Position numbers and translations under genes: made by a program. Below, in pieces: positions 560 to 19,912 of a DNA stretch of 43,221 bases. The stretch's first letter is position 1, and every line of letters starts with the position of its first letter. The notes under the pieces are model-generated. The model made no database searches. It saw nothing but the letters and a program-made list of their open reading frames with translations, and was not told where the DNA came from. This stretch comes from Polyangiaceae bacterium (GTDB lineage Bacteria; Myxococcota_A; Polyangia; Polyangiales; Polyangiaceae): NCBI GenBank assembly GCA_035482215.1, contig DATHQY010000448.1:1-43221 (forward strand), given 5' to 3'.

Positions 560-2191
560 CTATCCGCCGAATCGGTACTTGAAGAATGCGAAGTACGACG
601 GGAACGCGTCCCGCCAGAACCGGATCTTCTTGCCCTCGGCGAACCCGCGCGCCACGTAATTGACCGGCACTTCCATCGGCGAGTTGCCGTTGCGGGCGAG
701 CTTGCACGCGAGCTCGATGTCGAGCTCGAAACCGTTGCTCTCGAGGAGCAGCCCGTCGAGGCACTCGGTCCGAAAGACCTTGTACATCGTATTCACGTCG
801 GTCACGCGCTGCTGGTAGAGGAGGCCGTACGTCTTCGCGAAGACGACCTGCGCGAAGTTCAGCGCGAGCCCGCGGATGGGCGTCTCGTCGTATTTGCGGA
901 CCTTCCAGTCGTCGAGGCCGAGGCTCCGCGAGCCGAGCACGAACATCGCCTTGCGCTGGAGAATCGGATCGAGGAGGGCGTCGTAGTCGTCGATGTCGTA
1001 TTCGAAATCGGCGTCCTGGATCAGCACGATGGTGCCCGTGACGTGCGCGAGGCCCGTACGGACCGCGTGCCCTTTACCGCGCGGCCGCTCTTCGTAGACG
1101 ACGCGGACGCCCGGCCGGTCCTCGTATTGCGCGACGACGTCGCGCGTGCCGTCGGTGCTGTTGCTCTCGACGATGATGACTTCTTTTTCGATCGGGAGCT
1201 GCTTTGCGAGGAGCGCGTCGATCACCTGCCCGGCGTAACGGACCTCGTTGTAGACGGGGAGGACGACCGAGAGCTTCTCCACGGGAGACGACTTCAGCGC
1301 CGGCCGCCCGAAGATCGCGACGCGATTGCCTGTGCGCACCGGAATGGCGGCGTTGCCGAGGGGCGTCCTGGCGGCGAGCGCGAGGAGAGGGGAGGCTGGC
1401 GCGATGCGCTCGGCGACGTACCTCGCCGTGTGGGTCACCGGCAGCGCGTACTGCGCCTTCATGACGAGCTGGTAGGGCGCCATGAGCGAGGCCAGGTTGC
1501 CGGTGTTGAAAAACGCCGTCTTGTATTGGAAGAACTGTGGCCAGTGCTGGCGCATGATGCGCGCAGGCATCGAGTCCGCGTTCGTGTACGTCACCGCGAA
1601 GAGCGTCTCATGCGGGACGATCGCCGTGATCTTGGCGAGCACGCCGCCCGGATCGCTGCACGCCTCGAGCAGCTCGTGCAGAATCACCATCTGCGGGCGA
1701 CGCGCCAGCGCCGGCTTGGCCCACTCGATGTCGGACGCGGAGGCCATACGAGCGAACCGCTCGTCGTCGATCTCGGCGATATCGAGCCCCACCTTTCGCG
1801 CCTCGGCGAGGCCGCGAAACTCGCGCGAGAACCTCCCGATGAGGAGCGTGCGTGTGAGCGGCTGGCCGGCCGTGTTCTGGTGATCGTTCGCGAGGTGCGA
1901 GAGGAGCTCGCTGAAGTCCGCGAGGGCGAGCTCCCGCTCCCGGCCGACGCCGAGCCGCCCTGCGTCGTCGAGGTCGAAGTAGTTGACCCCGCCGTGGTCG
2001 CGCGCCGGATTGACGTAGACCATGGCACACGTGCCGCACCGCACGAACCGCACGCCCGTCCGGTGGAACAGGTAGCGCGGATTGTCGGCGTGGCAGGCCG
2101 GGCAAGGCACGAAGCGCTTGTGCGCTCGCGCCGCGCTGACGGCGGTCGTCGGTTCGAACTCGGGCAACGGCTGCGCGGCGCTCTCGTGCAT
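560..2191 (-). CDS. Two-domain protein: N-terminal zinc-ribbon/methyltransferase-like domain fused to a family-2 glycosyltransferase
   Basis: The C-terminal half carries GT2 signatures (KLSVVLPVYNE, STDGTRD, IQDADFEYD). The N-terminal half has CPACH...CGTC like the zinc ribbon of the 8755-9627 methyltransferase, but no clear GxGxG. I chose ATG at 2189-2191 because the longer 634-aa ORF overlaps the epimerase gene and is Arg/Ser junk. Stop is TAG 560-562. Confidence 0.8.
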   Translation of the reverse strand: MHESAAQPLPEFEPTTAVSAARAHKRFVPCPACHADNPRYLFHRTGVRFVRCGTCAMVYVNPARDHGGVNYFDLDDAGRLGVGRERELALADFSELLSHLANDHQNTAGQPLTRTLLIGRFSREFRGLAEARKVGLDIAEIDDERFARMASASDIEWAKPALARRPQMVILHELLEACSDPGGVLAKITAIVPHETLFAVTYTNADSMPARIMRQHWPQFFQYKTAFFNTGNLASLMAPYQLVMKAQYALPVTHTARYVAERIAPASPLLALAARTPLGNAAIPVRTGNRVAIFGRPALKSSPVEKLSVVLPVYNEVRYAGQVIDALLAKQLPIEKEVIIVESNSTDGTRDVVAQYEDRPGVRVVYEERPRGKGHAVRTGLAHVTGTIVLIQDADFEYDIDDYDALLDPILQRKAMFVLGSRSLGLDDWKVRKYDETPIRGLALNFAQVVFAKTYGLLYQQRVTDVNTMYKVFRTECLDGLLLESNGFELDIELACKLARNGNSPMEVPVNYVARGFAEGKKIRFWRDAFPSYFAFFKYRFGG

Positions 2192-2300
2192 CGCGCGGAG
2201 CAATACCACAGCGTCCGCCGCATGCGACCGCTGCGGGATCGCAGGCCCCGGCGCACCACGACGGCTGCGGGTGCGCCCGCCGCCTTCCAGGGAGCCGGCC

Positions 2301-3260
2301 TTAGCCCCTGTGCTCCACGTAAGGATTGTCCTGCAGAAAGCGCAGCGTCTCGACGATGCACTCGGGAATGGTCTTGCTCGGAGCCCAGCCGAGGCTTCGA
2401 ATCCGCGCCGTATCGAGGTCGATGCGCGGGCTGTCGCCGACCCATCCGCGCTCTCCGCCGGCATACTCGATGCGCGGAGACAGCTTCATCTCGGCCGTGA
2501 TGATCGCGATGCTCTGGAAGACGCGAACCGTATCGCGGTGGCCCAGATTGAAGATATTGATGGGCTCGCGGGCGCCCGCGACAGCCACGAAGATCGCGCC
2601 CACGCAATCGAGCACGTGGAGATAGCTCTTTTCTTGCCGCCCATCGCCGAGCACGGGGAGCCGCGAGGGATCTCGCTTCAGCTTCGCCCAGAAGTCGCGG
2701 ACGTGCCCGTGCGTGTACCGCGGTCCGAGCAGCGAAACGAAGCGGAAGATCCACGTGCGGAAGCCGAACCCGAGCGCGTACGACGAGAGGAGCCCTTCGG
2801 CGGCGACCTTCGACGTCGCGTAGATCGACGTCTGCACGGGGAACGGCGCGTCCTCCGGCGTGGGGAAGACGCGCGCCTCTCCGTAAACCGACCCGGTCGA
2901 CGCGAAGGCGATGTCTTTCGTCCCCGCCGCCCGCATCGCTTCGAGCACGTTCTGCGTCGCGATGATGTTCTGGTCGACGCACTTCCGCGGATCGGCCAGG
3001 TTGTCTTTGATGTCCGCGTTGGCGGCCAGATGGAAGACGAAGCTGACGCCGCGCATGGCTTCGTCGAGCGTCTTCTGATCCAGCAGGTCCCCCTCGACGA
3101 TGCGGAGGCGTTCGCGTGCGGGCACGAACTGCCGGAAGCCGGTCGAGAAGTTGTCGACGACCGTGACGCGGGCGCCGCGCGCGAGGAGCGCGTCGACGAT
3201 ATGACTGCCTATGAATCCCGCGCCCCCGGTGACGAGGGCATGCTGGTCCTGCCAATTCAT
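2301..3260 (-). CDS. NAD-dependent nucleotide-sugar epimerase/dehydratase (extended SDR, epimerase-like)
   Basis: It has the Rossmann motif VTGGAGFIGSH, the catalytic YATSK (YxxxK) and ASTGSVYG. It lies 13 nt downstream of the transaldolase stop on the same strand. Confidence 0.85.
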   Translation of the reverse strand: MNWQDQHALVTGGAGFIGSHIVDALLARGARVTVVDNFSTGFRQFVPARERLRIVEGDLLDQKTLDEAMRGVSFVFHLAANADIKDNLADPRKCVDQNIIATQNVLEAMRAAGTKDIAFASTGSVYGEARVFPTPEDAPFPVQTSIYATSKVAAEGLLSSYALGFGFRTWIFRFVSLLGPRYTHGHVRDFWAKLKRDPSRLPVLGDGRQEKSYLHVLDCVGAIFVAVAGAREPINIFNLGHRDTVRVFQSIAIITAEMKLSPRIEYAGGERGWVGDSPRIDLDTARIRSLGWAPSKTIPECIVETLRFLQDNPYVEHRG

Positions 3261-3273
3261 CGCGGCGCGGAGA

Positions 3274-3933
3274 CTACTTCTTCGCCGGGCGGTTGCGCCA
3301 CGCCGTGTTGAACTCGTTGATCGTTTCGATTGTCCGCGGGTTCCACACCATCTTGCGGAGAATGGGCGGCGTGATCGTCGGCACGTGTGCGCCCGCTTCC
3401 AGCGCCTCGTTGACGTCCATGATGTGCCGCATCGATCCGACGATGATCTTCGACGGAAGCCCTTCGCGGTCGAGCACCTTGCGCGTCCCCTCGATGACGG
3501 GCCGCACGTCGTAGCCCATGTCGCGCACGCGGCCGCTGAAGATGCTCACGTACGTCGCGCCGGCGAGAGCCGCGAGGTACGCCTGGTTCATCGCCATGAG
3601 GCACGTCACGTTCGTCTTGATCCCGCGCTTCACCAGCTGGTGAAGGACCCGCAGGCCCGTCTCGCTGAACGGCACTTTCACCGTGATCCGCTCCGGGTTC
3701 CACGCGTGGTAGTGGAGCGACTCCTGGAGCATCTCGGCTTCCGTCTCCGAGGTCAGCTCGACCGAGACGTCGCCCCAGCTCACGGCGAGGACTTCCCGAA
3801 TCCGCTCGCCGAGGTCCGCGTCCGGCGCTTCCTTCGCGATGATAAGCGGATTCGTCGTGACTCCCGAGATGACGCCCCACGCGAAGAGGTCTTTGATTTC
3901 TTTCGGATCCGAGCTGTCGATAAAAATAGCCAT
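3274..3933 (-). CDS. Transaldolase / fructose-6-phosphate aldolase family protein (Fsa/TalC/MipB type, ~219 aa)
   Basis: The sequence MAIFIDSSDPKEIK...GVTTNPLI...VKVP...GIKTNVT...SIFSGR is typical of the short transaldolase family. Its size also fits that class. Confidence 0.85.
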   Translation of the reverse strand: MAIFIDSSDPKEIKDLFAWGVISGVTTNPLIIAKEAPDADLGERIREVLAVSWGDVSVELTSETEAEMLQESLHYHAWNPERITVKVPFSETGLRVLHQLVKRGIKTNVTCLMAMNQAYLAALAGATYVSIFSGRVRDMGYDVRPVIEGTRKVLDREGLPSKIIVGSMRHIMDVNEALEAGAHVPTITPPILRKMVWNPRTIETINEFNTAWRNRPAKK

Positions 3934-3966
3934 TCTACCCCGTCCTTTTTAGCACATCGACTCTTC

Positions 3967-4108
3967 GCGGCGGAGCCCCAGACTCATGTTCGCCGCTTTC
4001 GCGGCGGAGCCCCAGACTCATGTTCCCCGCTTCGCGGCAGAGCCCCAGGCTCATGTTCGCCGCTTTCCGCGGCGGCCCCCAGGCTCATGTTCGCCGCTTT
4101 CGCGGCGA
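3967..4108. repeat. Tandem direct repeat: four units of 33-35 bp plus a 7-bp partial fifth (consensus GCGGCGGAGCCCCAGRCTCATGTTCGCCGCTTTC)
   Basis: Units lie at 3967-4000, 4001-4033, 4034-4068 and 4069-4101, with a partial unit at 4102-4108. Each unit is bounded by GCGGCG...CGCCGC, a potential stem. The array covers the 3' end of gmhB and the gmhB-transaldolase spacer. Confidence 0.95.
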
Positions 4109-4706
4109 CAATCTCCCTTGCCAGATCCAGCACCGTCCCGGCATGCGCGTCCGGCGTTTCTCCGTTGTAACCGCCCGATTGAGGCCGCAGCGGACAAAGC
4201 TCGCAGCGGTTCGTCGCAAAGACCAGGCCCGTCCGCATGCCTGCAGCCTTGCCGGCCTGAACGTCTCCCTGGCTGTCGCCGATCATCCACGACGCGGCGG
4301 CCTCGCCGTCGAATCGCGAGAGCAATGCCCGCAGCATTCCGGCTTTCGGCTTTCGGCAGTCGCAGCGCATCACGAGGGAAGGGTCGCCCCCCGGGCCGCC
4401 CTCCGGATGGTGCATGCACACTTCCACCCCCGCGACACGGATGCCCTGCTCGACCAGAAGCTCGACCAGTGCACCGTTGGTTCGTTCGACCGCGCGTGCG
4501 GAAATCTGCCCTTTTGCAGGTCCCGGCTGGTTCGTCGCGATGGCGAGGACGAACCCCGCGTCGGCCAGGGTGCGCATGCCGTCCACCGCGCCCGGAAGAA
4601 GACGAATCTGGTCAGGATGGAACGCGACCGCGATCGTGCCGGTTTCTTCGTCGCGGACGACGTCGATGAGCGTGGCGTCGCGATCGAAGATCGCGACGCG
4701 CGTCAC
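3984..4706 (-). CDS. gmhB: D-glycero-D-manno-heptose 1,7-bisphosphate phosphatase (HAD-IIIA) with a repeat-encoded C-terminal tail
   Basis: It has the HAD motif I (VAIFDRDATL), IATNQPG, CDCRKPKAGML and GDSQGDVQAG. The GTG start at 4704-4706 overlaps the gmhA stop TGA (4703-4705) as GTGA. The last ~41 codons are read from the tandem repeat, with the stop inside repeat unit 1. Confidence 0.8.
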   Translation of the reverse strand: MTRVAIFDRDATLIDVVRDEETGTIAVAFHPDQIRLLPGAVDGMRTLADAGFVLAIATNQPGPAKGQISARAVERTNGALVELLVEQGIRVAGVEVCMHHPEGGPGGDPSLVMRCDCRKPKAGMLRALLSRFDGEAAASWMIGDSQGDVQAGKAAGMRTGLVFATNRCELCPLRPQSGGYNGETPDAHAGTVLDLAREIVAAKAANMSLGAAAESGEHEPGALPRSGEHESGAPPRKRRT

Positions 4707-5302
4707 CGCACGCTCTCCCACTTCGTCGCGTTCTTCTGGAGCTTCGGGTGGCTCACGAGGAGGTGCCAGATGACGGCGCAGAAGCCTTCCGTGTGCGGGG
4801 TCGTCCGCGCGGTGCTCACGGTCGGAACGACGACGCACGCGTCGGCGACTTGCTTCGTGAATCCGCCGTCCCGGCCGACGATCCCGAACACTTTCGCGCC
4901 GACCTCGCGTGCGAGCTCGAGCGAACGGACGAGGTTGACGCTCACGTTCTTCTCGCGATTGCCGCCGCCCACGCTGAACACGAGAACGCCGTCGCCCGTG
5001 CGGAGCCGCGAAACGCGGAGCCACTCGACGAAGCAGCTGTCCCAGCCTTCGTCGTTCACGCGCGCCGTGAGCTCGCTCACGTTGTCCGTCGGCGCATAGG
5101 CTTCGAAGCCGCAGAGCTTGCGAAAGTCGTTCACCGCGTGGCCCGCGTGTCCGGCGCTGCCGCCGACGCCGAGAATGAAGAGGCGGCCGCCGCCGTTTCG
5201 CACGCTCGCCAACCCCTCGGCCACGGATTCGATCGCGTCCCGATCCAACGCGCGAATGAGCGCGATGCTTTCGTCCAGATAGTCGTCGATGAATTTGCTC
5301 AT
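4703..5302 (-). CDS. gmhA: Sedoheptulose-7-phosphate isomerase (SIS domain)
   Basis: The SIS motif is GRLFILGVGGSAGHAGHAVNDF, with later FSVGGG. Length is 199 aa from ATG 5300-5302. The upstream part of the 260-aa ORF looks non-coding. Confidence 0.85.
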   Translation of the reverse strand: MSKFIDDYLDESIALIRALDRDAIESVAEGLASVRNGGGRLFILGVGGSAGHAGHAVNDFRKLCGFEAYAPTDNVSELTARVNDEGWDSCFVEWLRVSRLRTGDGVLVFSVGGGNREKNVSVNLVRSLELAREVGAKVFGIVGRDGGFTKQVADACVVVPTVSTARTTPHTEGFCAVIWHLLVSHPKLQKNATKWESVR

Positions 5303-5342
5303 GATCGTCTCGAGACCGGTACCAAGGACCGGTGATGATGGG

Positions 5343-6338
5343 TCAGGACCGGTGGAAGTTCGCCATGATGCGCGCGCCGTCGAAGTCGAAGCGAAAGCGC
5401 ATGGGCCGGAGCCCGCGTGCAGCGAGCGCTTCTTGCACGCGCCGGCGTTCGGCTGCGCGCACGTAGAACATGAAGAATCCGCCACCCCCCGCGCCCATCA
5501 GTTTGCCGCCGATGGCGCCGGCTTTGCGCGCGACGTCATAGTGCTCGTCGATGGTCCCGTCGGCCATGTTGGCCGCGAGCTTGCGCTTGTTGGTCCAGTG
5601 CTCGTGCAGCATCTCGCCGTACGCGTCGATATTGCCCGTGAGCAAGATGCGCTTGGTCTCGTGGCCGAGCGCCTTGATCCGGTGCATTCGCTGCACCGCG
5701 TCGTCCTTGTTCGCGACAATCGTCTTCGCTTGCTCTTTGAGGACCGAAGCCGCCGCGCGCTCGACGCCCGAGTAATAGATGAGCAGGTTCGCCTCGAGCT
5801 CGTCGATGACCTCGTCGCGCAGCGCGAGCCGCTCGACGTCGACCGAACCGTCCGGGTGGAACGTCAGCGCGCTGATCCCGCCATACGCGGCGATGTACTG
5901 ATCCTGCTTGCCGATCGGTTCCTGAAGCACGTCGATCTCGAGGCTGCAGGCCTCGCGGGCGAGCTGCTCCACGGGCACGAACTCACGCCTGAATGCGTGC
6001 AGACCGTTGAGCAGCGCAACGGTGAACGTGCTGGACGAACCGAGGCCGGTGTTGGCCGGAACGTCGGCCAGGCTGTGGAGCTCGACGCCCTTGGTGACGT
6101 CCGTCATGCGGAGCGCTTCCCGGAAGATCCGGTGCCGGATCTGGTCGACCGAATCCACGATCTCGCTCTCGGTGTAGGCGAGGCGAATCGTGTTCTGGAA
6201 GCGCTTGGCCACGCAGACGTACACGAACTTGTCGACCGCGGCCGCGACGAGAAAACCGCCGTGCTCGCGCGAGTAACTCGGCAGGTCCGTACCGCCGCCG
6301 CCGAGCGAAAAACGAACCGGTGCACGAGAGACGATCAT
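5343..6338 (-). CDS. hddA: D-glycero-alpha-D-manno-heptose 7-phosphate kinase (GHMP kinase)
   Basis: The N-terminus MIVSRAPVRFSLGGGGTD is typical, as are the GHMP motifs PANTGLGSSS and KLMGAGGGGF. The ATG overlaps the hddC stop as ATGA at 6335-6338. Confidence 0.85.
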   Translation of the reverse strand: MIVSRAPVRFSLGGGGTDLPSYSREHGGFLVAAAVDKFVYVCVAKRFQNTIRLAYTESEIVDSVDQIRHRIFREALRMTDVTKGVELHSLADVPANTGLGSSSTFTVALLNGLHAFRREFVPVEQLAREACSLEIDVLQEPIGKQDQYIAAYGGISALTFHPDGSVDVERLALRDEVIDELEANLLIYYSGVERAAASVLKEQAKTIVANKDDAVQRMHRIKALGHETKRILLTGNIDAYGEMLHEHWTNKRKLAANMADGTIDEHYDVARKAGAIGGKLMGAGGGGFFMFYVRAAERRRVQEALAARGLRPMRFRFDFDGARIMANFHRS

Positions 6339-7090
6339 AGGGAAGCCGAAGTCCGAAGCAGCCGGTCGAGCTCGGCCAGCCCGGAGGGCGACCCAACTTC
6401 GTAGAATCTCTCATGGGCCACGTAGGCACGCAAGCGCATGCGCTGGGCCAGATCGTGCTGTACGCGATCGAGCCCGAACGCTTCGCCTTCGGGTGTCGCC
6501 GCGATTACGCTCCGTCGGAACGCGTTGGCGCCGTAATCGATGTGGTCCAGGCTCGGATCGCTGGCGCCCTTTTCGTACCGGCGCACCCACGCGCCGTCGA
6601 TGGCGACGTTCGACGCGTCCCATTGCCCATCGTTCTTGAAGACGGACATGACGCCGTCCGCGTCGTCGTGCGATTCGAGCATGCGGAGAGGACCAGCGTA
6701 GTCGAAGGGCAAATAGCTGTCGCCGTACGTCACGAGGAAGGCAGGCCCGAGGAGAGGGAGCGCCGCGCGCAAAGCCCCGCCGGTGCCGAGCAGATTCGGC
6801 CCCTCGTGCGACCACTGCACGGAGAGTCCGTAGCGGGCGCCGTCCTTCACGTGCGCTTCGATCTGGTCGCCCAGGAACGCGATGCACATGACCACCTCGC
6901 GGATGCCGCACGCCGCGAGGCGCTCGAGCTGCCAGTCGACGAAGGGACGGCCCGCCACCGGCAGCATCGACTTCGGCACCGTCAGCGTGGATGGATGCAT
7001 CCGCGTGGCGAGTCCGCCGGCGAGAACCACTGCTTGCACGGCGGGCTGCTTACCACGGGACACGCGGGAAAGCGCGTGTCTGGAGGCCAT
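6335..7090 (-). CDS. hddC: D-glycero-alpha-D-manno-heptose 1-phosphate guanylyltransferase (sugar-phosphate nucleotidyltransferase)
   Basis: It carries the nucleotidyltransferase motif AVVLAGGLATRM...PKSMLPV and GTGGAL, and is ~250 aa. It is the first gene of the operon and is translationally coupled to hddA. Confidence 0.8.
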   Translation of the reverse strand: MASRHALSRVSRGKQPAVQAVVLAGGLATRMHPSTLTVPKSMLPVAGRPFVDWQLERLAACGIREVVMCIAFLGDQIEAHVKDGARYGLSVQWSHEGPNLLGTGGALRAALPLLGPAFLVTYGDSYLPFDYAGPLRMLESHDDADGVMSVFKNDGQWDASNVAIDGAWVRRYEKGASDPSLDHIDYGANAFRRSVIAATPEGEAFGLDRVQHDLAQRMRLRAYVAHERFYEVGSPSGLAELDRLLRTSASL

Positions 7091-7141: not shown

Positions 7142-7214
7142 GGGCCATTAGCTCAATTGGTAGAGCAGCGGACTCTTAATCCGTTGGCTGATGGTTCGAG
7201 TCCATCATGGCCCA
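7142..7214 (+). tRNA. tRNA-Lys (anticodon CUU), 73 nt, CCA not encoded
   Basis: I folded the cloverleaf by hand. Acceptor stem is GGGCCAT/ATGGCCC. Anticodon stem is GCGGA/TCCGT with loop CTCTTAA (anticodon CTT at 7175-7177). T arm is GATGG-TTCGAGT-CCATC and the discriminator is A. Confidence 0.9.
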
Positions 7215-7220
7215 CTGAAA

Positions 7221-11150: not shown

Positions 11151-11153
11151 GCG

Positions 11154-12029: not shown

Positions 12030-13301
12030 CTATCCCTTCGCTGCGCCCCGGACGATCTCGATGGTCGGCAGCGGGAAGATCATGCCGACGCCGGAGGCGA
12101 GCAGCGCCTTCTCGCGTTCGACGAACTCGTCGCGAAAGTGCCAGGGCAATACTAGATAGTAATCCGGCTTCGCCTTCCGCGACTCCTCTTCGCTCACGAT
12201 GAGGATGTCGGAGCCGAGCGTGCGCGCGCCGAACTTGTCGGGGTTACGTTCGGCCGCGACGTCGACGAGGCGGCTGTCGATACCGCACCACTGGAGGATC
12301 GTGTTGCCCTTCGTCGACGCGCCGTAAGCGTGGATGCGCTTGCCCTCGGCGCGCAGCTTCCGCAACAGCGCGAGCAGCTCCTGCTTGTGGACGTTCACGC
12401 GCTCCTGGAAGTTTCTGTACGGCTGGTCCGTGTCGAGTTCGAGGTCGAACTCTTCCTGGCGCAGGCGCTTGATGTTGGCCGTGAACTCGTCGCGCCGATA
12501 ACGCCCATTGTCGGCATGCGTGGCATAGCAGCGGATCGAGCCGCCGTTGCTGGCATTGAGCGAGACGTTCACGAGCCGCAGATCGGCCTCCCGCATGATG
12601 CGCTCGAGCACGGCGAGGCTGTAATACTCGAGGTGCTCGTGGCAGATCGTGTCGTAGCTCGTCATGCGGAGCATGGTCGGCATGTACGACATCTCGACGC
12701 ACCAGAGACCGTCGGGCGAAAGGACGCGCTTGATGGCCCGGACGAACGCGATGGGATCTTCGAGATCGTAGAACATCGCGATCGACGTCACGATGTCGCA
12801 GGACTTCCCTGCGAGGGCGCTGGACAGATCTTCCGAGGGGAAGAGATCGTGGACGACGGTGATACCGGCCGGCACTTCGTTGGCAAGATCGGAGGGGTCT
12901 ACGCCGAACTTCGTGAACGACGCCGGATACGACTTGAGCAGCGTGCCGTCGTTGCATCCGATGTCGAGCACACGCGCGCCGGGCTTGCCGTAGAGGGTGG
13001 CTGCCTCCTCGGCGATCGCGCCGAGGTGGTTCGTCATCGTCGCGTTCGTGCCCGATCGATACCAGTAAACCGAGTAGAGAACCTCGGGCGGCACCGTATG
13101 CTCCGTTTGCAGGAGGCCGCACGCCTTCTCGTCGATCTCCGGGTTGCACCGCACGAGTGACGTCGGCACGCGCCGCATCGGCGGGACCTGACGCCCGGGC
13201 TTGAGGAACGAGCCCTGGAGGTGCTGCTCGCCGAGGTCGATGACCTTGGTCAACGACGACGACTTGCAGACCCGGCACGTGGTTCGACGCGTGAGGTGCA
13301 T
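12030..13301 (-). CDS. NDP-sugar C-methyltransferase (TylCIII-like; zinc-binding N-domain + SAM MTase + C-methyltransferase C-domain)
   Basis: The N-terminus has CRVCKS...LVRC, then YWYRSGTNATM, the SAM motif VLDIGCNDG, and HLEYYS. At 423 aa it fits this family. Confidence 0.8.
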   Translation of the reverse strand: MHLTRRTTCRVCKSSSLTKVIDLGEQHLQGSFLKPGRQVPPMRRVPTSLVRCNPEIDEKACGLLQTEHTVPPEVLYSVYWYRSGTNATMTNHLGAIAEEAATLYGKPGARVLDIGCNDGTLLKSYPASFTKFGVDPSDLANEVPAGITVVHDLFPSEDLSSALAGKSCDIVTSIAMFYDLEDPIAFVRAIKRVLSPDGLWCVEMSYMPTMLRMTSYDTICHEHLEYYSLAVLERIMREADLRLVNVSLNASNGGSIRCYATHADNGRYRRDEFTANIKRLRQEEFDLELDTDQPYRNFQERVNVHKQELLALLRKLRAEGKRIHAYGASTKGNTILQWCGIDSRLVDVAAERNPDKFGARTLGSDILIVSEEESRKAKPDYYLVLPWHFRDEFVEREKALLASGVGMIFPLPTIEIVRGAAKG

Positions 13302-13478: not shown

Positions 13479-14501
13479 ATGGACGCCGCTAAACACCGGG
13501 CGGTGCGAGGAGCGCAGATTGTGGCCGCTACGCGCGCCAGCCTGCGCGAATTCTTCTTGCTCGAAGACGCCGGTCGCCGCAGCGCCGCGACCGGCGCCAT
13601 GGATCGCGAATCGATCTTGGCATACTACGACGCCGCCCAGCGTAGGCGCGCCGTCGCAAATTCTCTCAGCGTTCCGGCGGAGACTCCAGCGGGCCTCATC
13701 CTCTACAGAGATGCGTGCCTGTGTCTCATCCAGGCGGTGCTCCTGGCGACGTCTGGAGGGAGCAAGCCGGGCGTCGAGGTGACGGAGCCGGAGGCGGCAT
13801 GGGAAGCTGTCAATCGCGTCGTCGATGATTGGGCCCCCGTCCCTCCGGCCGACCTCGAGTGCGTGCGCGATGTGCTCTTCGCCCGAGATCTGCTCGCGCT
13901 CGATCGGTTCTCGACCGAGGAGGCCGCGCGCCACTCGGCCGCACTTCGCGCCGCGCTCCAGCGTCTTTCGCGGTTCGTCGAGCCGCGTTCGCCGCTCCAG
14001 ATCCAACGCGAACGTCGGACTCGCCAGGCGCTGGCCGTTCTCGTCGTCGGCACGCTCCTGGTGACCCTCGCGGTGCGGTGGATGAGCCCATCCAACTTGG
14101 CGTTGAACCGCCCCGTCTCGTCCAGCCCTGTGGCCTTCGACACCACCGCCGCGGCCGCGGTGGACGGCGCGAAAAGCGAGCGGTTCGATTTCCATACCCA
14201 GACCGTGAACTCGCCCCAGCTGACCGTCGATCTCGGGAAAACGCGGGAGATCGCCAAGGTCAAAGTCTTCGGACGCGGCGACTGCTGTTTCGATCAGTCG
14301 TTGCCGCTGGTGCTCGAAGTCTCGACGGACGGCATCTCTTTTCGGCCGCTTGCCGAGCGCACGACGGCGTTCAGCACGAGCGATCCCTGGATCGTCCAAA
14401 TCGGCGCCCGCGAGAACGCGCGCTTCGTTCGCTTGCGCTGCAGAGGGGAGGGCGCTCTCGTGCTGAACGAGGTCGAAGTCTACGGGAGGCCCTGGCAATA
14501 G
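13479..14501 (+). CDS. Single-pass membrane protein with a C-terminal discoidin (F5/8 type C) carbohydrate-binding domain
   Basis: The TM segment is ALAVLVVGTLLVTLAV. The C-terminal ~140 aa carry QLTVDLGKTREIAKVKVFG...ARFVRLRC...LNEVEVYG. The start is uncertain: TTG 13428, ATG 13479 and ATG 13599 are all possible. Confidence 0.7.
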   Translation: MDAAKHRAVRGAQIVAATRASLREFFLLEDAGRRSAATGAMDRESILAYYDAAQRRRAVANSLSVPAETPAGLILYRDACLCLIQAVLLATSGGSKPGVEVTEPEAAWEAVNRVVDDWAPVPPADLECVRDVLFARDLLALDRFSTEEAARHSAALRAALQRLSRFVEPRSPLQIQRERRTRQALAVLVVGTLLVTLAVRWMSPSNLALNRPVSSSPVAFDTTAAAAVDGAKSERFDFHTQTVNSPQLTVDLGKTREIAKVKVFGRGDCCFDQSLPLVLEVSTDGISFRPLAERTTAFSTSDPWIVQIGARENARFVRLRCRGEGALVLNEVEVYGRPWQ

Positions 14502-14538
14502 TCGCTAGTCGCGCACGATCGACGGCGGGTGCGGGAAC

Positions 14539-14757
14539 TCACTCCGCGCGTTCCAGCCAGATTCGCACCTCGCCCGGCTCCTCTCCGCGTTCGACGTGGA
14601 CGACGCGCGGCCGGCAGCAGACAGCGCAGTCTTCGATGTACTCCTGGGCGTCCCCACCCCCGGCGTCGACGTAGAGGTCGTCGACCTGGCCGCAGAAGGG
14701 GCACTCGACCGAGGAGGGCGTTCGCTTCGGCTTTCTACGCCGTCGCTTCGTGCTCAT
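14539..14757 (-). CDS. CPXCG-motif cysteine-rich small protein with a basic N-terminal extension
   Basis: ECPFCGQ...YIEDCAVCCRP matches the CPXCG family pattern. The protein is 72 aa. Confidence 0.75.
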   Translation of the reverse strand: MSTKRRRRKPKRTPSSVECPFCGQVDDLYVDAGGGDAQEYIEDCAVCCRPRVVHVERGEEPGEVRIWLERAE

Positions 14758-14826
14758 ACAGGCAGAGCGTATCCGTCCGGAGCACCCGTTTCACGCGCGG
14801 CACGTCGGCGGGCACATTCTGCCTGT

Positions 14827-16287
14827 TCACCTCGGCGGCGGCCCGTAGAGCGTCGCTCGCCAGTCTGCGTATCCGTACGTCCCGGCGATCGATTGAACCG
14901 GCGTCCACGACGAGTCGACCTCGAGGATTTCCCCCGACGTGGAATACGTAATCAGCGTATTGCCGTTTGGGAGCCGCTGCACGTCCCCGAGGACGGTGCT
15001 GGACAAGCTTCCCGACGTGAAGTCAAAGGCCGACGTGGCAGACATCGGGCTCCCGGCATTCAGCTGAAATTCCAGGATGTCGGATGGGCCACCGGTATTG
15101 TTGTTGAACACGAGCATCGTGCCGTCATCGAGGAGATGGTGACCGTGATTCACGTGCCAGCTCTCCGAGACACAATGCGCCGCGCCCGCCGGCGCGTTGG
15201 CGCAGCTACCGCCGAATTGCCACTGGAGAATTCCAGCCTCCGAGACCTTGACGTAGAGGTTCGGGTACCGATCGCCGATGGTGAACGTGTCGTCGACGGG
15301 GTGGTACAGGATCGAGTTGCAGTGGTACGACACCGTCGACGGTTCGCCCGTGGTCCCGGCTCCCACGTAAAGGTTCGGGCCGATCGCGAAGACGGTCGTC
15401 GGCGAGCCTGACCCGTCGGAGCTCATCTCGACGAGATTGCTCGCCACGTCGACGTCGCTGCCATTCCACACCATGGCGGCGATTTTCCCCGGGAGCACCG
15501 CGAAGTCGTGATGAGCATTCGCGAGGCCGGCGATGTTCGTCATCCCGGTCTGTCCGTCCATCGAGACCCATCGCATCTCGCCGCCCGAGTTGTCCTCGTT
15601 GGCGGCCACCATCCACATGTTGGCGCCCTCGTAGTCCATGCGGGCGCGGGTGCATTGAATCGGTGCGGCCGCAAACCATACCATCGTACCGTCGGCGTCG
15701 ATGATGACGGCGTAGTTGCCGTACGTGACCCCGCTGCTCGTGACGATGAACCCCTTCGCCTGCGCGGCCGCGTTGAAGACCGTACGCGAGATCGCCGGAA
15801 TCATCGCTGTCGGTACTTCGTTCAGGACCCCCGTCGTTGGCAGCGTGTAATCCGAACTTCTGCAGACCGCGCCGCTCCCGTCCTGCGCCTCGATGTGGAA
15901 CGTGTAGTCGCTCGATGGCTTCAGCCCGAGCAGCAACGTTCTGTAGTTCGCCCTCGTCAGGTCCACGGGGGCCGTGCCACCCGTATTGAGCACGCCGGAG
16001 GGCGCGCCATTCAGCGTGTAGACGATGCTGGCGCTCGCCGGGGCCGCCAGGGTGGTCGACCACTCGACGACACCCACCGTGGCCATCCCCGGGCTGATCG
16101 CATTCGTGAGGATCGAAAAGGAGCAACTCGCGGCACCGCCGTCGTCCCCCGCCGAGGGCATCGCGTCCCCCGCGCCGATCACTTCGCCGTCGGAGCGTCC
16201 CCCGTCCGCTCCGGGCCTTGGCGAGGTCGAGTCACCCGACCCGCAACACGCCAGGATGAGCAGCACCGGGGCGAAGCGGGACGACAT
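14827..16287 (-). CDS. Lipoprotein, arylsulfotransferase (ASST)-like beta-propeller with an N-terminal beta-sandwich
   Basis: The lipobox is MSSRFAPVLLILACCG. ASST-like motifs are ESWHVNHGHHLLDDG and LPNGNTLITYS. ATG at 16285-16287 lies 8 nt after the upstream gene's stop. Confidence 0.65.
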   Translation of the reverse strand: MSSRFAPVLLILACCGSGDSTSPRPGADGGRSDGEVIGAGDAMPSAGDDGGAASCSFSILTNAISPGMATVGVVEWSTTLAAPASASIVYTLNGAPSGVLNTGGTAPVDLTRANYRTLLLGLKPSSDYTFHIEAQDGSGAVCRSSDYTLPTTGVLNEVPTAMIPAISRTVFNAAAQAKGFIVTSSGVTYGNYAVIIDADGTMVWFAAAPIQCTRARMDYEGANMWMVAANEDNSGGEMRWVSMDGQTGMTNIAGLANAHHDFAVLPGKIAAMVWNGSDVDVASNLVEMSSDGSGSPTTVFAIGPNLYVGAGTTGEPSTVSYHCNSILYHPVDDTFTIGDRYPNLYVKVSEAGILQWQFGGSCANAPAGAAHCVSESWHVNHGHHLLDDGTMLVFNNNTGGPSDILEFQLNAGSPMSATSAFDFTSGSLSSTVLGDVQRLPNGNTLITYSTSGEILEVDSSWTPVQSIAGTYGYADWRATLYGPPPR

Positions 16288-16295
16288 GAAAAACA

Positions 16296-18302
16296 CTACG
16301 GCATCGCGTTGAGGTCGACCACGGTCATCTGATGGGCGCGGTATACGACATGGCGCATGCTCGCGAACTTTTCGATCGAATCCATCCCGTCGATGTGAAA
16401 AGGCGCCTCCCCGCTCAGGAAAAGATCGGCAGCCTTGAACTGGGCCCAGTGGGCCCGATTGTAAAGCTCGTTCGCCGTATCGAAGTTCGTCCACACGACG
16501 TAACGAATGCCGTTCGCTCTGAAGTAATCGAGCAACGCCTGCGCGCCCTTGAATGCGGGCCACCCGGGCTTCGGCCCCGTCCCGCCGAGGACATCGAGCG
16601 TGTAGATCCTGTTGCGCTTGAAGTCGAACCGCCAAGGTTCGTGTACTGCGCATGCGAACGTCGCGCCCGGATCGATGTGCGACTGGATCTCCGTGTACGC
16701 GGCGGTGCCCGCCGAAAACTCGCGCTCATCGCGGTCGCCGTTCGTAAATACATGATTCGCGACGTCGATCGCGCCGATATAGGCACCGCGCATTTCATCG
16801 TGAACGAGCGCAACGTGGAGCCCGACCGCGAGGGCCAAAAGCGCGGCGCGGATGTCGTGGGGCCCGAGTGACATCGCGATGATGAGCCCCGTTGCCGCGA
16901 CGTACGCGTTCATGTAGCGCGCGTGCGCAAACGAGTCGAAGGCCCCCGCTGCTCGCGCGAGCGACCAGATGCCGAGAAGCGACCCAACCGTGAGAAACAC
17001 GATGTCGTTGCGGGCGCGGCCTCGCATCGGGACGAAGCCCGCGAAGAGGAAGAGGAGGAAGAAGCAAATCGGCTTGTCGTAGGTCAGGTCCGAAAACCAG
17101 GCCTGGATCGCCTGTTTCATCGGCGCCGTCTTCAAGAACACCCACCCCGGCGTCATGTTGCCCTGCCAGATCGGGTAGAAGAACGTCCCGCACGATTGGT
17201 AGAGCATCCACGACCAGGGAAGCAGCGTCAGGGCGATCGCCGCCGAGAAAAGGCCCATCCGACTCACGAACGATAGAAGGGCTTGGCGAGTGAACGGTCG
17301 TCGCGTCCCCAGAAAGTAGTCCGACGCGAACACCAGGAGCAGAAACGGAAGAAGCGCCGGCCCGTTCGTCGGTCGGAGGATGATGGCTACGACGAGCAGA
17401 ACACCGAGCGCGAGGATGCGCCGCGGCTCGTAGGGCCATTGCGGGGCGTTGCCATCCGCCAAGGGGAACCGGAGCGTCCGGTACATCGTCAAGACAACGG
17501 GAATGCCCGTCGTCTCGCTCGCGATGTTCAGATGGACGCCGGTGAGGGTGAAGAACAGGCACATGGCGAAGCCGAGCGGAACGGCGTGCCAACCCTTGAT
17601 GCCATTTCGCGTCACGTGGCCGACGACGAGGCCGAACGCGAGGGCCAGGCCGATGCCCCCGTCGACCATCGGCAGACAATAGAAGGGCGCCAGCGACGCG
17701 AAGAGACCGTGCAGGTACGGCTGGCCGCCGAGCGTCGCGAAGCGCCGGGAATTGAATGGCTCGTACAGACTGCCGATATCGATCAGCTTTTTGGCGAATT
17801 CGAAATAGAGCGGCTGATCGTCGGACGGCTGGAACTCATGCTTTCCGGCGTAATGGACGAAGATGAGCGCGGCGACGGCATACGACAGGGCCAGCAGGAT
17901 GAGGACGCCGGAGTGCGCGATCCACGCGGCGAGCCGGCGCCGCGAGAGGGGCCGCGGCTTCTCGTTCGCCCAGAGCCAGATGAACGCACCGACGCCGACC
18001 GCCACTTGTGCGATCAACACGGGCCCCCTCGCGGCGTGTATGAGCGTCAGATAGCCGCCGACTAGCAGGACGAACGCCATGCCCCAGCCGGCGCGAAGAC
18101 CCCAATCGACTCGCCGCCCATTCGTGAGCCAGAGGTTCACGACGGAGCCCCAACCGACGAACGAGAGGAGCATGAGTAAGCTCCACACGAGCGTGATCCC
18201 GCTCGCGTGTGCACGCAGTGCTACGACGAGTGCGACGGCGACGACAGCGAACACCGAGCCGAGCGCCAGACGGACGGCCTTGTTCCCCGAGAGAGAGACC
18301 AT
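16296..18302 (-). CDS. Large polytopic membrane protein (~14 TM) with a C-terminal soluble domain; possible GT-C-like transferase or polymerase
   Basis: It has many hydrophobic segments. An acidic loop PSDDQPLYFEF follows TM5. A ~160-aa hydrophilic C-terminus follows. I preferred ATG 18302 over 18347 because the 15 extra codons use rare AGA/ATA/AAT codons. Confidence 0.6.
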   Translation of the reverse strand: MVSLSGNKAVRLALGSVFAVVAVALVVALRAHASGITLVWSLLMLLSFVGWGSVVNLWLTNGRRVDWGLRAGWGMAFVLLVGGYLTLIHAARGPVLIAQVAVGVGAFIWLWANEKPRPLSRRRLAAWIAHSGVLILLALSYAVAALIFVHYAGKHEFQPSDDQPLYFEFAKKLIDIGSLYEPFNSRRFATLGGQPYLHGLFASLAPFYCLPMVDGGIGLALAFGLVVGHVTRNGIKGWHAVPLGFAMCLFFTLTGVHLNIASETTGIPVVLTMYRTLRFPLADGNAPQWPYEPRRILALGVLLVVAIILRPTNGPALLPFLLLVFASDYFLGTRRPFTRQALLSFVSRMGLFSAAIALTLLPWSWMLYQSCGTFFYPIWQGNMTPGWVFLKTAPMKQAIQAWFSDLTYDKPICFFLLFLFAGFVPMRGRARNDIVFLTVGSLLGIWSLARAAGAFDSFAHARYMNAYVAATGLIIAMSLGPHDIRAALLALAVGLHVALVHDEMRGAYIGAIDVANHVFTNGDRDEREFSAGTAAYTEIQSHIDPGATFACAVHEPWRFDFKRNRIYTLDVLGGTGPKPGWPAFKGAQALLDYFRANGIRYVVWTNFDTANELYNRAHWAQFKAADLFLSGEAPFHIDGMDSIEKFASMRHVVYRAHQMTVVDLNAMP

Positions 18303-18304
18303 TA

Positions 18305-18353
18305 TCTTGCCCGCATTTCTCCACGCCCGACCGTGTCTTGCCCGCATTTCTCC
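18305..18353. promoter_or_regulatory. Perfect 18-bp direct repeat TCTTGCCCGCATTTCTCC x2 with 31-bp periodicity, in a divergent promoter region
   Basis: The copies at 18305-18322 and 18336-18353 lie between the membrane-protein gene (start 18302, minus) and the MTase-GT2 gene (start 18452, plus). Confidence 0.5.
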
Positions 18354-18451
18354 GCGCCGGCCCGCGCGCCGCTGTGTACCACATAGATCCTTGCGGGCAC
18401 CGCGCTCCGCATCGCTCGCGAACGCCGGGCGGTTTGATATCGTCCTCCGCG

Positions 18452-19912
18452 ATGTCCGTGACTGATCCGCGTCCTGAGACCGCCACTACGCTCGATTCTT
18501 CGGCCGGGGCGTCTTCGATGTCGCCCGAGTGGCGAGAATACTTCCTCGCGCTCCTCCACGGGGATCCGCGAGTGGCCGCCGCCAGGCGCTTCGTGCGAAC
18601 GAACATCTGCGGGGTGATGCGGCGTCTCGTCCCGCAGGACGCGCGCGTGCTCGAAGTGGGCGTCGGCGGCGGGCAGGTGCTCGCGGCTCTCCCGAATCAG
18701 GTGCGTCACGGCATTGATCTTCTGCCGGAAGCCATCGAAGCGTCGCGCCGGCTCGACCCCACGATGCGCGTCGATCGCGCCGACGTGCTGACGTTCAGCG
18801 CACCCGAGCGGTACGACGCAATCATCTGCGACCGGCTCCTCCATACGGTGCCGGACGTGCAACGGATGCTCGAGAATCTCGCCGCTCACATCGAAGAAGA
18901 CGGCAGGATCTACCTCACGTGCTTCAACTTCTTGTGGGGTCTCTTCCTCGGCAGCGCGGTGAAGCTCGGTGTCACCGAGAGCCGTCCGGCGGAGAACTGG
19001 TTCTCCGAAAGTGCGTTGGAAGACGTGTTCACCCTCGTGGGGCTCGAAGCGGTCCACTACGAAGATCACGTGCTCGTCCCGGCAGACGTCCCGTTGCTCA
19101 ACAAATTCGTAGCGCAGCTTCCCGGCGTCCGTTCCGGAGCGCTCTACCGCACGTACGTTCTCCGGCACCGCCGCGTTCACCGCGCGCCGAACCCCGGCGT
19201 TTCCGTCATCGTGCCCGCGCGAAACGAGTCGGAGAACGTGATCGCCGCCGTCGCGCGGACCCCGGTGATGGGCGCATGGACGGAGATTGTCTTCGTCGAA
19301 GGCGGGTCGACCGACGGTACGTGGGAGCAAATCCAGAAGACGATCGCGTCGTACCGAGGTCCGCTTCGCCTCTCGGCCTACAAGCAGACGGGCAAGGGGA
19401 AGGGAGACGCCGTGCGTCTCGGCTTCGACAAGGCCAAGGGGGACATCCTCATGATTCTCGACGCGGACCTGACGGTGCCGCCCGAGGATCTGCCGAAGTT
19501 CTACGACGCGATGGCCAGCGGACTGACGGACTACGTGCAGGGCACGCGGATGGTCTACCCGATGGAGGACGAAGCCATGCGCCTCCTCAACAAGTTCGGC
19601 AACGTCTTCTTCGCCAAGACGTTCACCTATCTGCTCGACCAGCGCATCAACGACACGCTCTGCGGGACGAAAGTCCTCTGGAAAAAGGACTACGAGCGCC
19701 TCGCCAGGCAGCGATCCTACTTCGGCGAGCTCGATCCGTTCGGCGACTTCGATCTGATCTTCGGCGCGCGACGGCTGCACCTAAAGCTGATGGAGATCCC
19801 GATTCGGTACCGGAGCCGCGTCTACGGCGAGACGAACATCTCGCGCTTCCGGGACGGCGCGCTGCTCCTCCGCATGACGGCGCTGGCCGCCCGCAAGATC
19901 AAGTTCGCCTAG
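18452..19912 (+). CDS. Fusion of an N-terminal SAM methyltransferase with a C-terminal family-2 glycosyltransferase
   Basis: The methyltransferase motif I is VLEVGVGGGQ, followed by YDAIICDRLLH. The GT2 part has VSVIVPARNE, EGGSTDGT and ILDADLTVP. ATG 18452 was chosen because the upstream part of the ORF is Arg/Pro-rich. Confidence 0.8.
   Translation: MSVTDPRPETATTLDSSAGASSMSPEWREYFLALLHGDPRVAAARRFVRTNICGVMRRLVPQDARVLEVGVGGGQVLAALPNQVRHGIDLLPEAIEASRRLDPTMRVDRADVLTFSAPERYDAIICDRLLHTVPDVQRMLENLAAHIEEDGRIYLTCFNFLWGLFLGSAVKLGVTESRPAENWFSESALEDVFTLVGLEAVHYEDHVLVPADVPLLNKFVAQLPGVRSGALYRTYVLRHRRVHRAPNPGVSVIVPARNESENVIAAVARTPVMGAWTEIVFVEGGSTDGTWEQIQKTIASYRGPLRLSAYKQTGKGKGDAVRLGFDKAKGDILMILDADLTVPPEDLPKFYDAMASGLTDYVQGTRMVYPMEDEAMRLLNKFGNVFFAKTFTYLLDQRINDTLCGTKVLWKKDYERLARQRSYFGELDPFGDFDLIFGARRLHLKLMEIPIRYRSRVYGETNISRFRDGALLLRMTALAARKIKFA

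Follow-up and report, generated by a model that had tools for sequence, protein, structure and literature searches.

What is built by the block of sugar-related genes at 560-19912 of contig DATHQY010000448.1 from a Polyangiaceae bacterium (assembly GCA_035482215.1), and do these genes act as one system? The whole stretch of DNA analysed, here called the window, is 43,221 nucleotides long. Analysis of third-position GC (GC3) frames together with Pfam, NCBIfam and PDB searches revealed 17 protein genes in the block; an earlier note on this DNA had counted 17 genes for sugar chemistry there, and this was borne out, with the named families present at their places. The 17 genes are not one conserved unit: the window holds three separable modules, each pairing a GT2 glycosyltransferase with a GT-C membrane glycosyltransferase, and the modules are joined where a tRNA gene marks a variable region. 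In the reading favoured here, on a balance that tips only slightly towards it, the three adjacent modules serve glycosylation outside the cytoplasm by way of lipid-linked sugars. Each GT2 enzyme, soluble or peripherally bound, would move a sugar from its nucleotide to polyprenyl phosphate at the inner membrane face, and each GT-C enzyme would use the lipid-linked monosaccharide, once turned over by a presumed flippase, at the periplasmic face, on an acceptor that may be a protein or a cell-surface glycan.

The DxD motifs of the three GT2 domains read DCD, DAD and DAD, the protein at 560-2191 having DAD. The leading NCBIfam matches of the GT2 proteins were AglJ (1e-27 and 3e-28 for the two in which a methyltransferase-type domain precedes GT2, here MT-GT2), the haloarchaeal dolichyl-phosphate (Dol-P)-hexose transferase, ArnC and the mycobacterial polyprenyl-phospho-GalNAc synthase PpgS. 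In the 560-2191 protein, which matched Pfam GT2 at 2.3e-25, AglJ came first at 1.1e-27 and was followed by ArnC, the Dol-P-hexose transferase and PpgS; in the 18452-19912 protein AglJ reached 3.2e-28 and the Dol-P-hexose transferase 1.9e-14. PDB sequence searches were made with the fusions at 9726-11150 and 18452-19912, the 560-2191 protein being assigned by Pfam and NCBIfam only. Both fusions matched best the Pyrococcus furiosus dolichyl-phosphate mannose synthase (DPMS; 3.3e-22 and 3e-15), then ArnC (4e-10 for 18452-19912) and GtrB; for 9726-11150 the DPMS match covers the catalytic domain in full (query 23-237 against chain 21-232). An AlphaFold2 (AF2) model of the 9726-11150 protein was built from 24 homologues (pLDDT 80.7) and has helices at 132-149 and 216-240 after the GT-A core. 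When this model was compared with the PDB by Foldseek, the first ten matches were DPMS, ArnC and GtrB only. Judged by sequence and predicted structure, the GT2 domains belong to the polyprenyl-phosphate glycosyltransferase class, and the Dpm1 type given to them earlier agrees with NCBIfam for three of them, with the PDB for two and with Foldseek for one. The membrane proteins could likewise be placed among the GT-C enzymes, as had been claimed, by a GT87 match above the Pfam cut-off, by TMTC-type motifs in a 664-aa protein and by the predicted structure of a 668-aa protein.

The GT2-methyltransferase (GT2-MT) fusion of module B has more than 2000 homologues in many phyla. Its neighbourhood was sampled in 80 loci (L008-L087; one genome per species; GT2-MT identity 49-73%) from Myxococcota, Gemmatimonadota, Planctomycetota (Scalindua, Kuenenia), Verrucomicrobiota, Rokubacteria, Acidobacteriota, Armatimonadota and others, at least seven phyla in all. 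Homologues of all window proteins were searched for near each GT2-MT gene. A C-methyltransferase was found in 63 of the 80 loci and a GMD-family gene in 49; the second methyltransferase-GT2 protein (18452-19912) was found in five, the GT87 protein and the F5/8 type C protein in four each, and the 668-aa GT-C in one. Heptose genes were seen near GT2-MT in a few Polyangia only (L009, L018, L019), the transaldolase and SDR (short-chain dehydrogenase/reductase) genes also in L016 and L017, about five of the 80. Polytopic membrane proteins abut GT2-MT in most loci, at a median distance of 12.5 bp for the largest cluster. In profile-profile comparison the membrane-protein clusters c0, c2, c4 and c7 resembled a PMT_2-type cluster (92-98% hhalign probability), and clusters c3 and c8 a TMTC-like cluster (98% and 91%). 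Of the loci, 52 extend 5 kb or farther to either side of GT2-MT; among these a recognised GT-C lay within 300 bp of the gene in 25 and within 5 kb in 35. For one GT2-MT match (L060) the contig is assigned to Klebsiella pneumoniae, probably through an error of binning.

The modules could also be seen apart. In L092, a relative on a 178-kb contig with proteins about 80% identical, the heptose genes of module A are kept and the GT87/C-methyl module is missing. The proposal that the 17 genes form a single co-conserved system did not hold, as L092 lacks module B and GT2-MT is linked to the C-methyltransferase and GMD genes and rarely to the heptose genes. The cluster is split by a tRNA-Lys(CTT) gene that the earlier note had overlooked. 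The same tRNA adjoins hddC in L092 (5139-5212), and there DUF1214/DUF1254 genes replace the entire GT87/GT2-MT/C-methyltransferase block; because L092 has the tRNA and hddC but not module B, the tRNA-Lys is taken as the boundary of modules A and B and as a variable junction. A genomic island at the tRNA was considered and rejected: the tRNA end recurred only as a 17-nt, 88% match within the GT-C gene, taken as chance, and there was no integrase and no att-like duplication.

Pfam analysis of every candidate gene revealed no phosphoglycosyltransferase (PGT), Wzx, Wzy, Wzz or ABC exporter in the 43-kb window, and likewise none in the 6.6 kb beyond its left edge, taken from another assembly of the same organism (L001), nor in the corresponding 10 kb or so of L092. 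A flanking PGT/Wzx/Wzy/ABC set, named earlier as the finding that would refute the lipid-linked route, was thus not found in the right-hand 23 kb, in the left-hand 6.6 kb or in about 10 kb of L092. Besides the three Dpm1-like GT2 enzymes, no Leloir glycosyltransferase could be found in the 43 kb.

Table 1. Features of the block at the left end of the window, with the matches on which the assignments are based
Feature	Position	Strand	Evidence
TPR-tail C-terminus (184 aa) of 664-aa TMTC/PMT-clan-like GT-C	2-556	+	100% identical to L001:3222-5216
Module A synthase: Zn-ribbon + degenerate methyltransferase-like domain + Dpm1/AglJ-like GT2	560-2191	-	Last operon gene
GalE-like NDP-sugar 4-epimerase-type SDR	2301-3260	-	Best PDB match 3ehe GalE-1, 4.7e-78
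Fsa/TalC-type transaldolase	3274-3933	-	Pfam TAL_FSA 3.2e-34; TIGR00875 1.7e-46, below cut-off
gmhB, GmhB-like HAD-IIIA heptose bisphosphate phosphatase	3984-4706	-	NCBIfam PRK08942 1.4e-30, TIGR00213 4e-21
gmhA, GmhA-like sedoheptulose-7-phosphate isomerase (SIS)	4703-5302	-	All four NCBIfam matches are GmhA models, 1e-12 to 3e-9
hddA, HddA-like GHMP kinase	5343-6338	-	Best NCBIfam match NF049969 HddA 1.3e-47, residues 2-322 of 331
Sugar-1-phosphate nucleotidyltransferase, HddC/ManC/MurU-like	6335-7090	-	NCBIfam MurU 8e-35, Man-1-P guanylyltransferase 4e-30, HddC 5e-18
tRNA-Lys(CTT)	7142-7215	+	ARAGORN; Rfam 75.7 bits; between hddC and GT87 gene
Module B GT-C, GT87 (PimE/DUF2029)-like	7420-8748	+	Pfam GT87 PF09594 2.9e-7, 30.9 bits against cut-off 25
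Free Zn-ribbon + class I S-adenosylmethionine (SAM) methyltransferase	8755-9627	-	Methyltransf_23 2.5e-32
Module B synthase: Dpm1-like GT2 + C-terminal SAM methyltransferase fusion	9726-11150	+	PDB 5mlz DPMS 3.3e-22, whole GT domain
GMD-family paralogue, 289 aa	11154-12023	-	PDB GMD 4e-40, Rmd 1e-19, Campylobacter heptose 4,6-dehydratase 5e-11
NDP-4-keto-sugar 3-C-methyltransferase (TylC3/TcaB9 type)	12030-13301	-	PDB 4rv9 2.6e-58, residues 7-417; TcaB9 about 1e-38
Protein with single transmembrane (TM) segment and C-terminal F5/8 type C (discoidin) carbohydrate-binding domain	13479-14501	+	Pfam F5_F8_type_C 1.4e-11
Small cysteine-rich CPXCG protein	14539-14757	-	Pfam Cys_rich_CPXG 3.6e-17
ASST-like beta-propeller lipoprotein	14827-16287	-	Arylsulfotran_2 8.7e-9, above cut-off; signal peptide ends ...LILAC
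Module C GT-C (predicted), 668-aa polytopic protein, C-terminal periplasmic domain	16296-18302	-	No Pfam/NCBIfam family
29-nt direct repeat, two copies, 90% identity, 31 nt apart	18305-18364		150-nt divergent promoter region between GT-C and MT-GT2 genes
Module C synthase: N-terminal SAM methyltransferase + AglJ/Dpm1-like GT2	18452-19912	+	GT2 3.9e-23 and methyltransferase families

The G+C content of the window is 63-73%, and raw lists of open reading frames (ORFs) consist mostly of spurious frames. Genes were called by GC3 and frame plots with inspection of start codons; Pfam was run on every candidate gene of the window, NCBIfam on the cluster genes and PDB sequence searches on selected ones. 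Corrected gene starts were set at 2191, 9726, 18302 and 18452. A start at 2464, giving a 634-aa ORF for the 560-2191 gene, was rejected: that form had no exact-sequence match, and the true start at 2191 yields the 543 aa seen in other assemblies. Of the four to five methyltransferase domains counted earlier, four are convincing, whereas the fifth, in the 560-2191 protein, matches Methyltransf_23 below the Pfam cut-off and has no glycine-rich SAM loop. Promoter and terminator scans were uninformative in this high-GC DNA.

Module A would consist of the operon hddC-hddA-gmhA-gmhB-transaldolase-epimerase-GT2 and of the convergent, TPR (tetratricopeptide repeat)-tailed, TMTC-like GT-C gene at the left edge. 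The operon runs on the minus strand from 7090 to 560 and its seven genes are tightly spaced, with gaps from a 4-nt overlap to 109 nt. The best or only matches of the GmhA-, HddA- and GmhB-like proteins are heptose-pathway models, at scores below the cut-offs, and the transaldolase is presumed to supply sedoheptulose-7-phosphate. Inspection of the SDR sequence revealed STGSVYG...YATSK without the acid/base Asp/Glu of dehydratases; a DmhA/RmlB-type dehydratase was ruled out by these motifs and by the best PDB matches, which are 4-epimerases. The order of the heptose operon, with the GT2 gene in the same operon position, is kept in L092 together with the TPR GT-C and the tRNA-Lys. The GT2 family of module A is common in Polyangia.

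The full GT-C protein at the left edge, 664 aa long, could be recovered from L001. It has at least seven hydrophobic segments and TPR matches in the PDB at about 1e-6, and no Pfam family was matched even at E up to 5. After the first hydrophobic stretch, in the first external loop (EL1), stand 'FIFDEQE' and 'GSYRPL', which correspond to the motifs M1 (DD) and M2 (SHKSYRP) of the first luminal loop of TMTC proteins (PMC7801869). The acidic pair in EL1, the SYRP-type motif and a TPR tail on the luminal or periplasmic side are features shared with the eukaryotic TMTC (GT105) and PMT O-mannosyltransferases, from which the protein differs in having no Pfam DUF1736 or PMT match. On these sequence features it is proposed as the GT-C partner of module A; the sugar of the operon would be loaded on polyprenyl phosphate and passed to an acceptor recognised through the TPR tail. 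In one Polyangia genome, a homologue of the module A GT2 gene stands beside a nest of transposase and integrase genes (L089:660-7465; Transposase_mut, Y2_Tnp, rve, Phage_integrase), which is consistent with mobile or variable glycosylation modules.

Module B would be formed by the GT87-like GT-C, the free methyltransferase, the GT2-MT fusion, the 3-C-methyltransferase and the GMD paralogue. The GT87-like protein covers profile positions 3-228 of 237 in PF09594 and has a weak ALG3 match as well. It is judged a distant member of the family because it had no PDB sequence match at E up to 1. Its 'GGADFAYPY' after TM1 is comparable to PimE D58/Y62, as aligned by eye only. Homologues with 36-41% identity adjoin GT2-MT genes in L010, L012, L024 and L034, and a 72%-identical homologue of the free methyltransferase occupies the same position in L010. 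The methyltransferase domain of the fusion was found nearest to O-methyltransferases of small molecules and sugars (MitM, AtmM, RebM) when the AF2 model was searched by Foldseek. Since the fused domains resemble sugar O-methyltransferases, the analogy suggests that they O-methylate the donor or the lipid-linked sugar.

The C-methyltransferase has the domains PF08421 (Methyltransf_13), PF13489 (Methyltransf_23) and PF08484 (Methyltransf_14), as in TylC3, TcaB9 and KijD1. Its neighbour had been called GMD-like in the earlier note, but its catalytic dehydratase residues are replaced. The protein was aligned with the GMD-family genes of the 80 related loci and an E. coli reference sequence, the catalytic residues of GMD following PMC3539893. 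The genes of the 80 loci comprise an S-S-E...Y-x-x-x-K type (true GMD) and types without the Glu. Where GMD has T/S-x-E...Y-x-x-x-K, the window protein has S-A-V...Y-x-x-x-R; a 4,6-dehydratase is unlikely and was rejected, as both the catalytic Glu and the catalytic Lys are replaced. Provisionally, its sequence is read as that of a 4-ketoreductase or epimerase. The subgroup with S-A-V/M and YxxxR comprises the window protein, L036:14583-15446 and L050:3324-4193, and always adjoins a 3-C-methyltransferase. For an SDR, Arg is an unusual substitute for the catalytic Lys.

Module B probably handles a 3-C-methyl sugar, a reading based on the linkage in 63 of the 80 loci and on the analogy with the virenose pathway proposed for Coxiella burnetii, in which GMD, a TylCIII-type C-methyltransferase and a reductase yield GDP-virenose (PMC3539893). 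Its product would be a GDP-linked 3-C-methyl (6-deoxy) sugar of the virenose or evalose type, or a heptose analogue, which would be loaded on polyprenyl phosphate, O-methylated by the fused RebM/AtmM-like domain and transferred as mannose is by PimE. In L009, L016 and L017 heptose genes, a true GMD, a C-methyltransferase and a GT2-MT gene occur together, so that a 6-deoxy-C-methyl-heptose is conceivable there. The F5/8 type C protein has one strong TM segment ahead of its domain, and this discoidin domain and the TPR tail of module A suggest recognition of a protein or a glycan.

Module C would combine the MT-GT2 synthase with the 668-aa GT-C, which is co-transcribed with the ASST-like lipoprotein, in the same scheme with another sugar. 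The 668-aa protein matched no Pfam family even at E up to 5 and no NCBIfam family, and its family is represented by 19 sequence clusters among 5.8 billion proteins. Three neighbours taken from related loci likewise matched no Pfam family at E up to 5. The AF2 model derived from these clusters (pLDDT 82.4, pTM 0.87) gave as best Foldseek matches the C-mannosyltransferase DPY19, ArnT, STT3/AglB and AftA (GT-C_A), each with probability 1.00 and with moderate TM-scores of 0.3-0.5. An invariant D161-D162 follows the fifth TM helix and would be periplasmic if the basic N-terminus is cytoplasmic, and the C-terminal alpha/beta domain lies outside the membrane in the model. By its predicted structure the protein is a GT-C of an unclassified family. 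A distant homologue, P0138, has an MT-GT2 gene directly upstream. The ASST-like gene is immediately downstream of the GT-C gene, and a 52%-identical homologue is found near a GT2-MT gene in L013. The pair of 29-nt repeats between the divergent GT-C and MT-GT2 genes may be a binding site for a regulator.

Several observations weigh against glycosylation through such lipid-linked donors. The window has no GtrA/SMR/MATE-type flippase and no small polytopic ORF, and no TM helix was predicted in any of the three GT2 proteins. Module B has no dehydratase bearing the catalytic Glu; as TylC3-type C-methyltransferases require a 4-keto sugar nucleotide, a dehydratase or oxidase with its gene elsewhere must supply this intermediate. 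In module A the GmhA-, HddA-, GmhB- and HddC-like enzymes all score below the NCBIfam equivalog cut-offs, and the nucleotidyltransferase scores higher for the MurU and ManC models than for HddC, so that the GDP of the heptose nucleotide is presumed and not read from the enzyme. Moreover, three homologues of the module A GT2 with 67-73% identity have no heptose genes within 10 kb. A polytopic protein follows each (PMT_2 in L090), two of the three are preceded by a flippase-like LPG_synthase_TM gene, and in L091, where heptose genes are absent, a GalE-like SDR 66% identical to the 2301-3260 protein lies directly upstream. At such identity the same donor is probable; therefore the donor may not be a heptose, or the heptose genes may be located elsewhere in those genomes.

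In a different explanation, ordinary sugars such as mannose, glucose or galactose are added from a polyprenyl-phosphate carrier in the manner of Gtr or Arn systems, and the rare sugar nucleotides are used by Leloir glycosyltransferases elsewhere for a conventional Wzx/Wzy or ABC O-antigen, capsule or exopolysaccharide. Homologues of the module A GT2 occur without heptose neighbours, and one, preceded only by the GalE-like epimerase, suggests a donor of the UDP-Glc/Gal or GDP-Man type; heptose genes accompany GT2-MT in only about five of the 80 loci, and in L006 a Polysacc_synt flippase gene and other GT2 genes lie beside the core module. However, here the heptose genes and the GT2 gene form one tight operon that is kept in L092, and the 43 kb hold no Leloir enzyme that could use such nucleotides beyond the three Dpm1-like GT2 enzymes. 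The C-methyltransferase (63/80) and GMD (49/80) genes are, furthermore, the most constant neighbours of GT2-MT, which is hard to explain unless GT2-MT uses their product. This explanation is considered unlikely, although it deserves to be taken seriously.

For module A itself, use of the heptose made by its own operon is possible but falls somewhat short of probable. We infer the heptose donor from operon structure only, namely that the genes are co-transcribed, that L092 has kept them together and that the locus offers no other transferase, and the case is weakened by the heptose-free homologues at 67-73% identity. A polyprenyl-phosphate-heptose donor is plausible. The earlier suggestion of GDP-heptose as the GT2 donor stands to the extent that the heptose operon includes the GT2 gene and is kept in L092, but the sub-cut-off enzymes and the homologues without heptose genes speak against it.

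The lack of TM helices can also be read in another way, as a sign that soluble MT-GT2 enzymes make methylated glycans or glycosides in the cytoplasm, comparable to the mycobacterial polymethylated polysaccharides with their GpgS-type start, and that the membrane proteins are functionally unrelated. The plentiful methyltransferase domains of the locus and weak PDB and NCBIfam matches to glucosyl-3-phosphoglycerate synthase (4e-5 to 3e-10) would fit. However, the DPMS, AglJ and ArnC matches are better by many orders of magnitude than those to GpgS, the structure search was topped by polyprenyl-phosphate GT2 enzymes only, and GT-C genes adjoin GT2 genes across phyla too regularly for chance; the cytoplasmic route is thus regarded as improbable. 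Without a TM helix the GT2 proteins would need peripheral membrane binding or a partner in order to act on a lipid phosphate. The human DPM1 and M. smegmatis Ppm1 synthases likewise have no TM domain of their own. Tailoring of a secondary metabolite, with a deoxysugar made for a glycosylated myxobacterial natural product, can be put aside as highly improbable: the nearest solved relatives of the C-methyltransferase do belong to antibiotic pathways (mycarose 3-C-methyltransferase, TcaB9, KijD1) and the methyltransferase domain resembles MitM, RebM and AtmM, but no polyketide synthase, nonribosomal peptide synthetase, terpene or GT1-type genes occur in the window or the related loci, and the presence of the module with GT-C genes in Verrucomicrobiota, Planctomycetota, Rokubacteria and others fits envelope glycosylation better.

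Glycosylation by three GT2 and GT-C pairs, as favoured here, has relatives among known systems. Three-component systems comprise GtrA/GtrB/GtrC of Shigella and Salmonella, CsbB/GtcA/YfhO of Firmicutes and the Citrobacter pentofuranose system (PMC11127046). They too join a polyprenyl-monophosphate-sugar synthase at the cytoplasmic face to an outward GT-C, apart from undecaprenyl-diphosphate (Und-PP) pathways, and auxiliary epimerases can diversify the sugar; the present locus differs in having no GtrA/SMR/MATE gene, anchor-less GT2 enzymes fused to methyltransferases, heptose and C-methyl pathways of its own, and three modules side by side. The mycobacterial polyprenyl-phosphomannose (PPM) pathway (Ppm1 and PimE; PMC12041525) offers the same combination of a Dpm1-type synthase using a GDP-sugar and a GT-C of the GT87 family. 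Unlike it, the locus belongs to a Gram-negative host, has a fused O-methyltransferase and a donor that is probably not plain mannose, and is without a pathway for phosphatidylinositol mannosides or lipomannan (PIM/LM). In ArnC/ArnT, which are among the best structural matches, a GT2 likewise loads a sugar tailored by neighbouring enzymes and an ArnT-type GT-C transfers it; here the sugar chemistry is another, homologues of ArnA, ArnB and ArnD are lacking, as is an ArnE/F flippase, and lipid A is not a known acceptor.

For the sugars, the heptose pathway of Campylobacter (PMC10680097) provides the enzyme types GmhA, HddA, GmhB and HddC followed by SDR tailoring. Campylobacter-type systems use Leloir glycosyltransferases and Und-PP-linked or ABC-exported polymers, whereas the enzymes of the window are divergent and have only Dpm1-like GT2 and GT-C neighbours. 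The enzyme logic of module B matches the virenose pathway and is seen also in relatives from other phyla; L050 comes from a metagenome-assembled genome of the Coxiellaceae. In Coxiella the sugar is thought to be bound to O-antigen via conventional transferases, whereas the window has no GMD with the catalytic Glu and has a Dpm1-like GT2-MT attached. In the literature, subscription journals not being covered, no polyprenyl-phosphate-heptose/GT-C system, GT2-methyltransferase fusion or lipid-linked C-methyl sugar was found to be described. The earlier claim that the combination is undescribed is supported in this respect, but the general mechanism is familiar from the Gtr, Arn, PPM and three-component systems. 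Because the general strategy is already known, the locus does not represent a new kind of system. No description was found of heptose and C-methyl candidates for lipid-monophosphate donors, of anchor-less Dpm1-like synthases fused to methyltransferases, of the rare GT-C family or of the wide spread of the GT2-MT/C-methyltransferase/GT-C module.

Beyond the block, the rest of the window is of housekeeping type. The region to the right of 19912 encodes a rhodanese, a DUF6918 protein, an S41 peptidase, a large radical-SAM protein, a GGDEF response regulator, an M20 peptidase, RuvA and a PMT_2-type GT-C, and also a ParA-like ATPase, a response regulator, an SDR, Ddl, RibA, HolA and a Ser/Thr kinase. 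The PMT_2 GT-C (31457-32968, minus strand; 7.6e-6, with weak similarity to Agl23/AZOBR_p60025) lies 11 kb from the cluster beside the ParA-like gene. The latter (32965-34560, minus strand) encodes a ParA/MinD-like P-loop ATPase with a DnaJ-like segment and a C-terminal HTH_25 domain of the RodZ type, and the response-regulator gene comes after it. The radical-SAM protein (23390-26200, minus strand) unites, in 936 aa, Radical_SAM_N2 with a radical SAM core and DUF2344, and the Ddl-like protein (36669-38810, minus strand), with 713 aa and two D-Ala-D-Ala ligase C-terminal matches, has about twice the usual length of Ddl. On the left, the sequence of L001 completes the TPR GT-C and has beyond it genes for a Tet-like MFS transporter and for FtsJ; L092 has on the same side a periplasmic binding protein, a sigma-54 regulator, a histidine kinase and unrelated genes. 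LPG_synthase_TM (MprF-flippase-like) genes stand beside Dpm1-like GT2 genes in other loci (L006:18968-19753, L090:8779-9873, L091:7884-8879) and are flippase candidates that do not occur in the window.

Taken across the phyla, the loci may represent a class in which polyprenyl-phosphate glycosyltransferases fused to methyltransferases load 3-C-methyl-6-deoxyhexoses (virenose or evalose) or, in some Polyangia, heptoses, O-methylate them on or just before the carrier, and pass them to a dedicated GT-C, one of which would be a new family; this generalisation is tentative and somewhat doubtful. If it is true, the lipid-linked monosaccharide donors, which include mannose, glucose, GlcNAc, GalNAc, Ara4N, GalA, arabinofuranose and ribofuranose, would gain heptoses and branched C-methyl sugars, and the fused synthase-methyltransferase would be a new architecture that suggests tailoring at the carrier stage. 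A new GT-C family may have its founding member in the 668-aa protein. The GT2-MT/C-methyltransferase/GT-C module is found with at least 49% protein identity in Myxococcota, Verrucomicrobiota, Planctomycetota (including anammox bacteria), Gemmatimonadota, Rokubacteria and others. Thousands of genes would thus be annotated by characterising one such module biochemically, and this would point to an envelope glycan in many mostly uncultured bacteria of soil and water.

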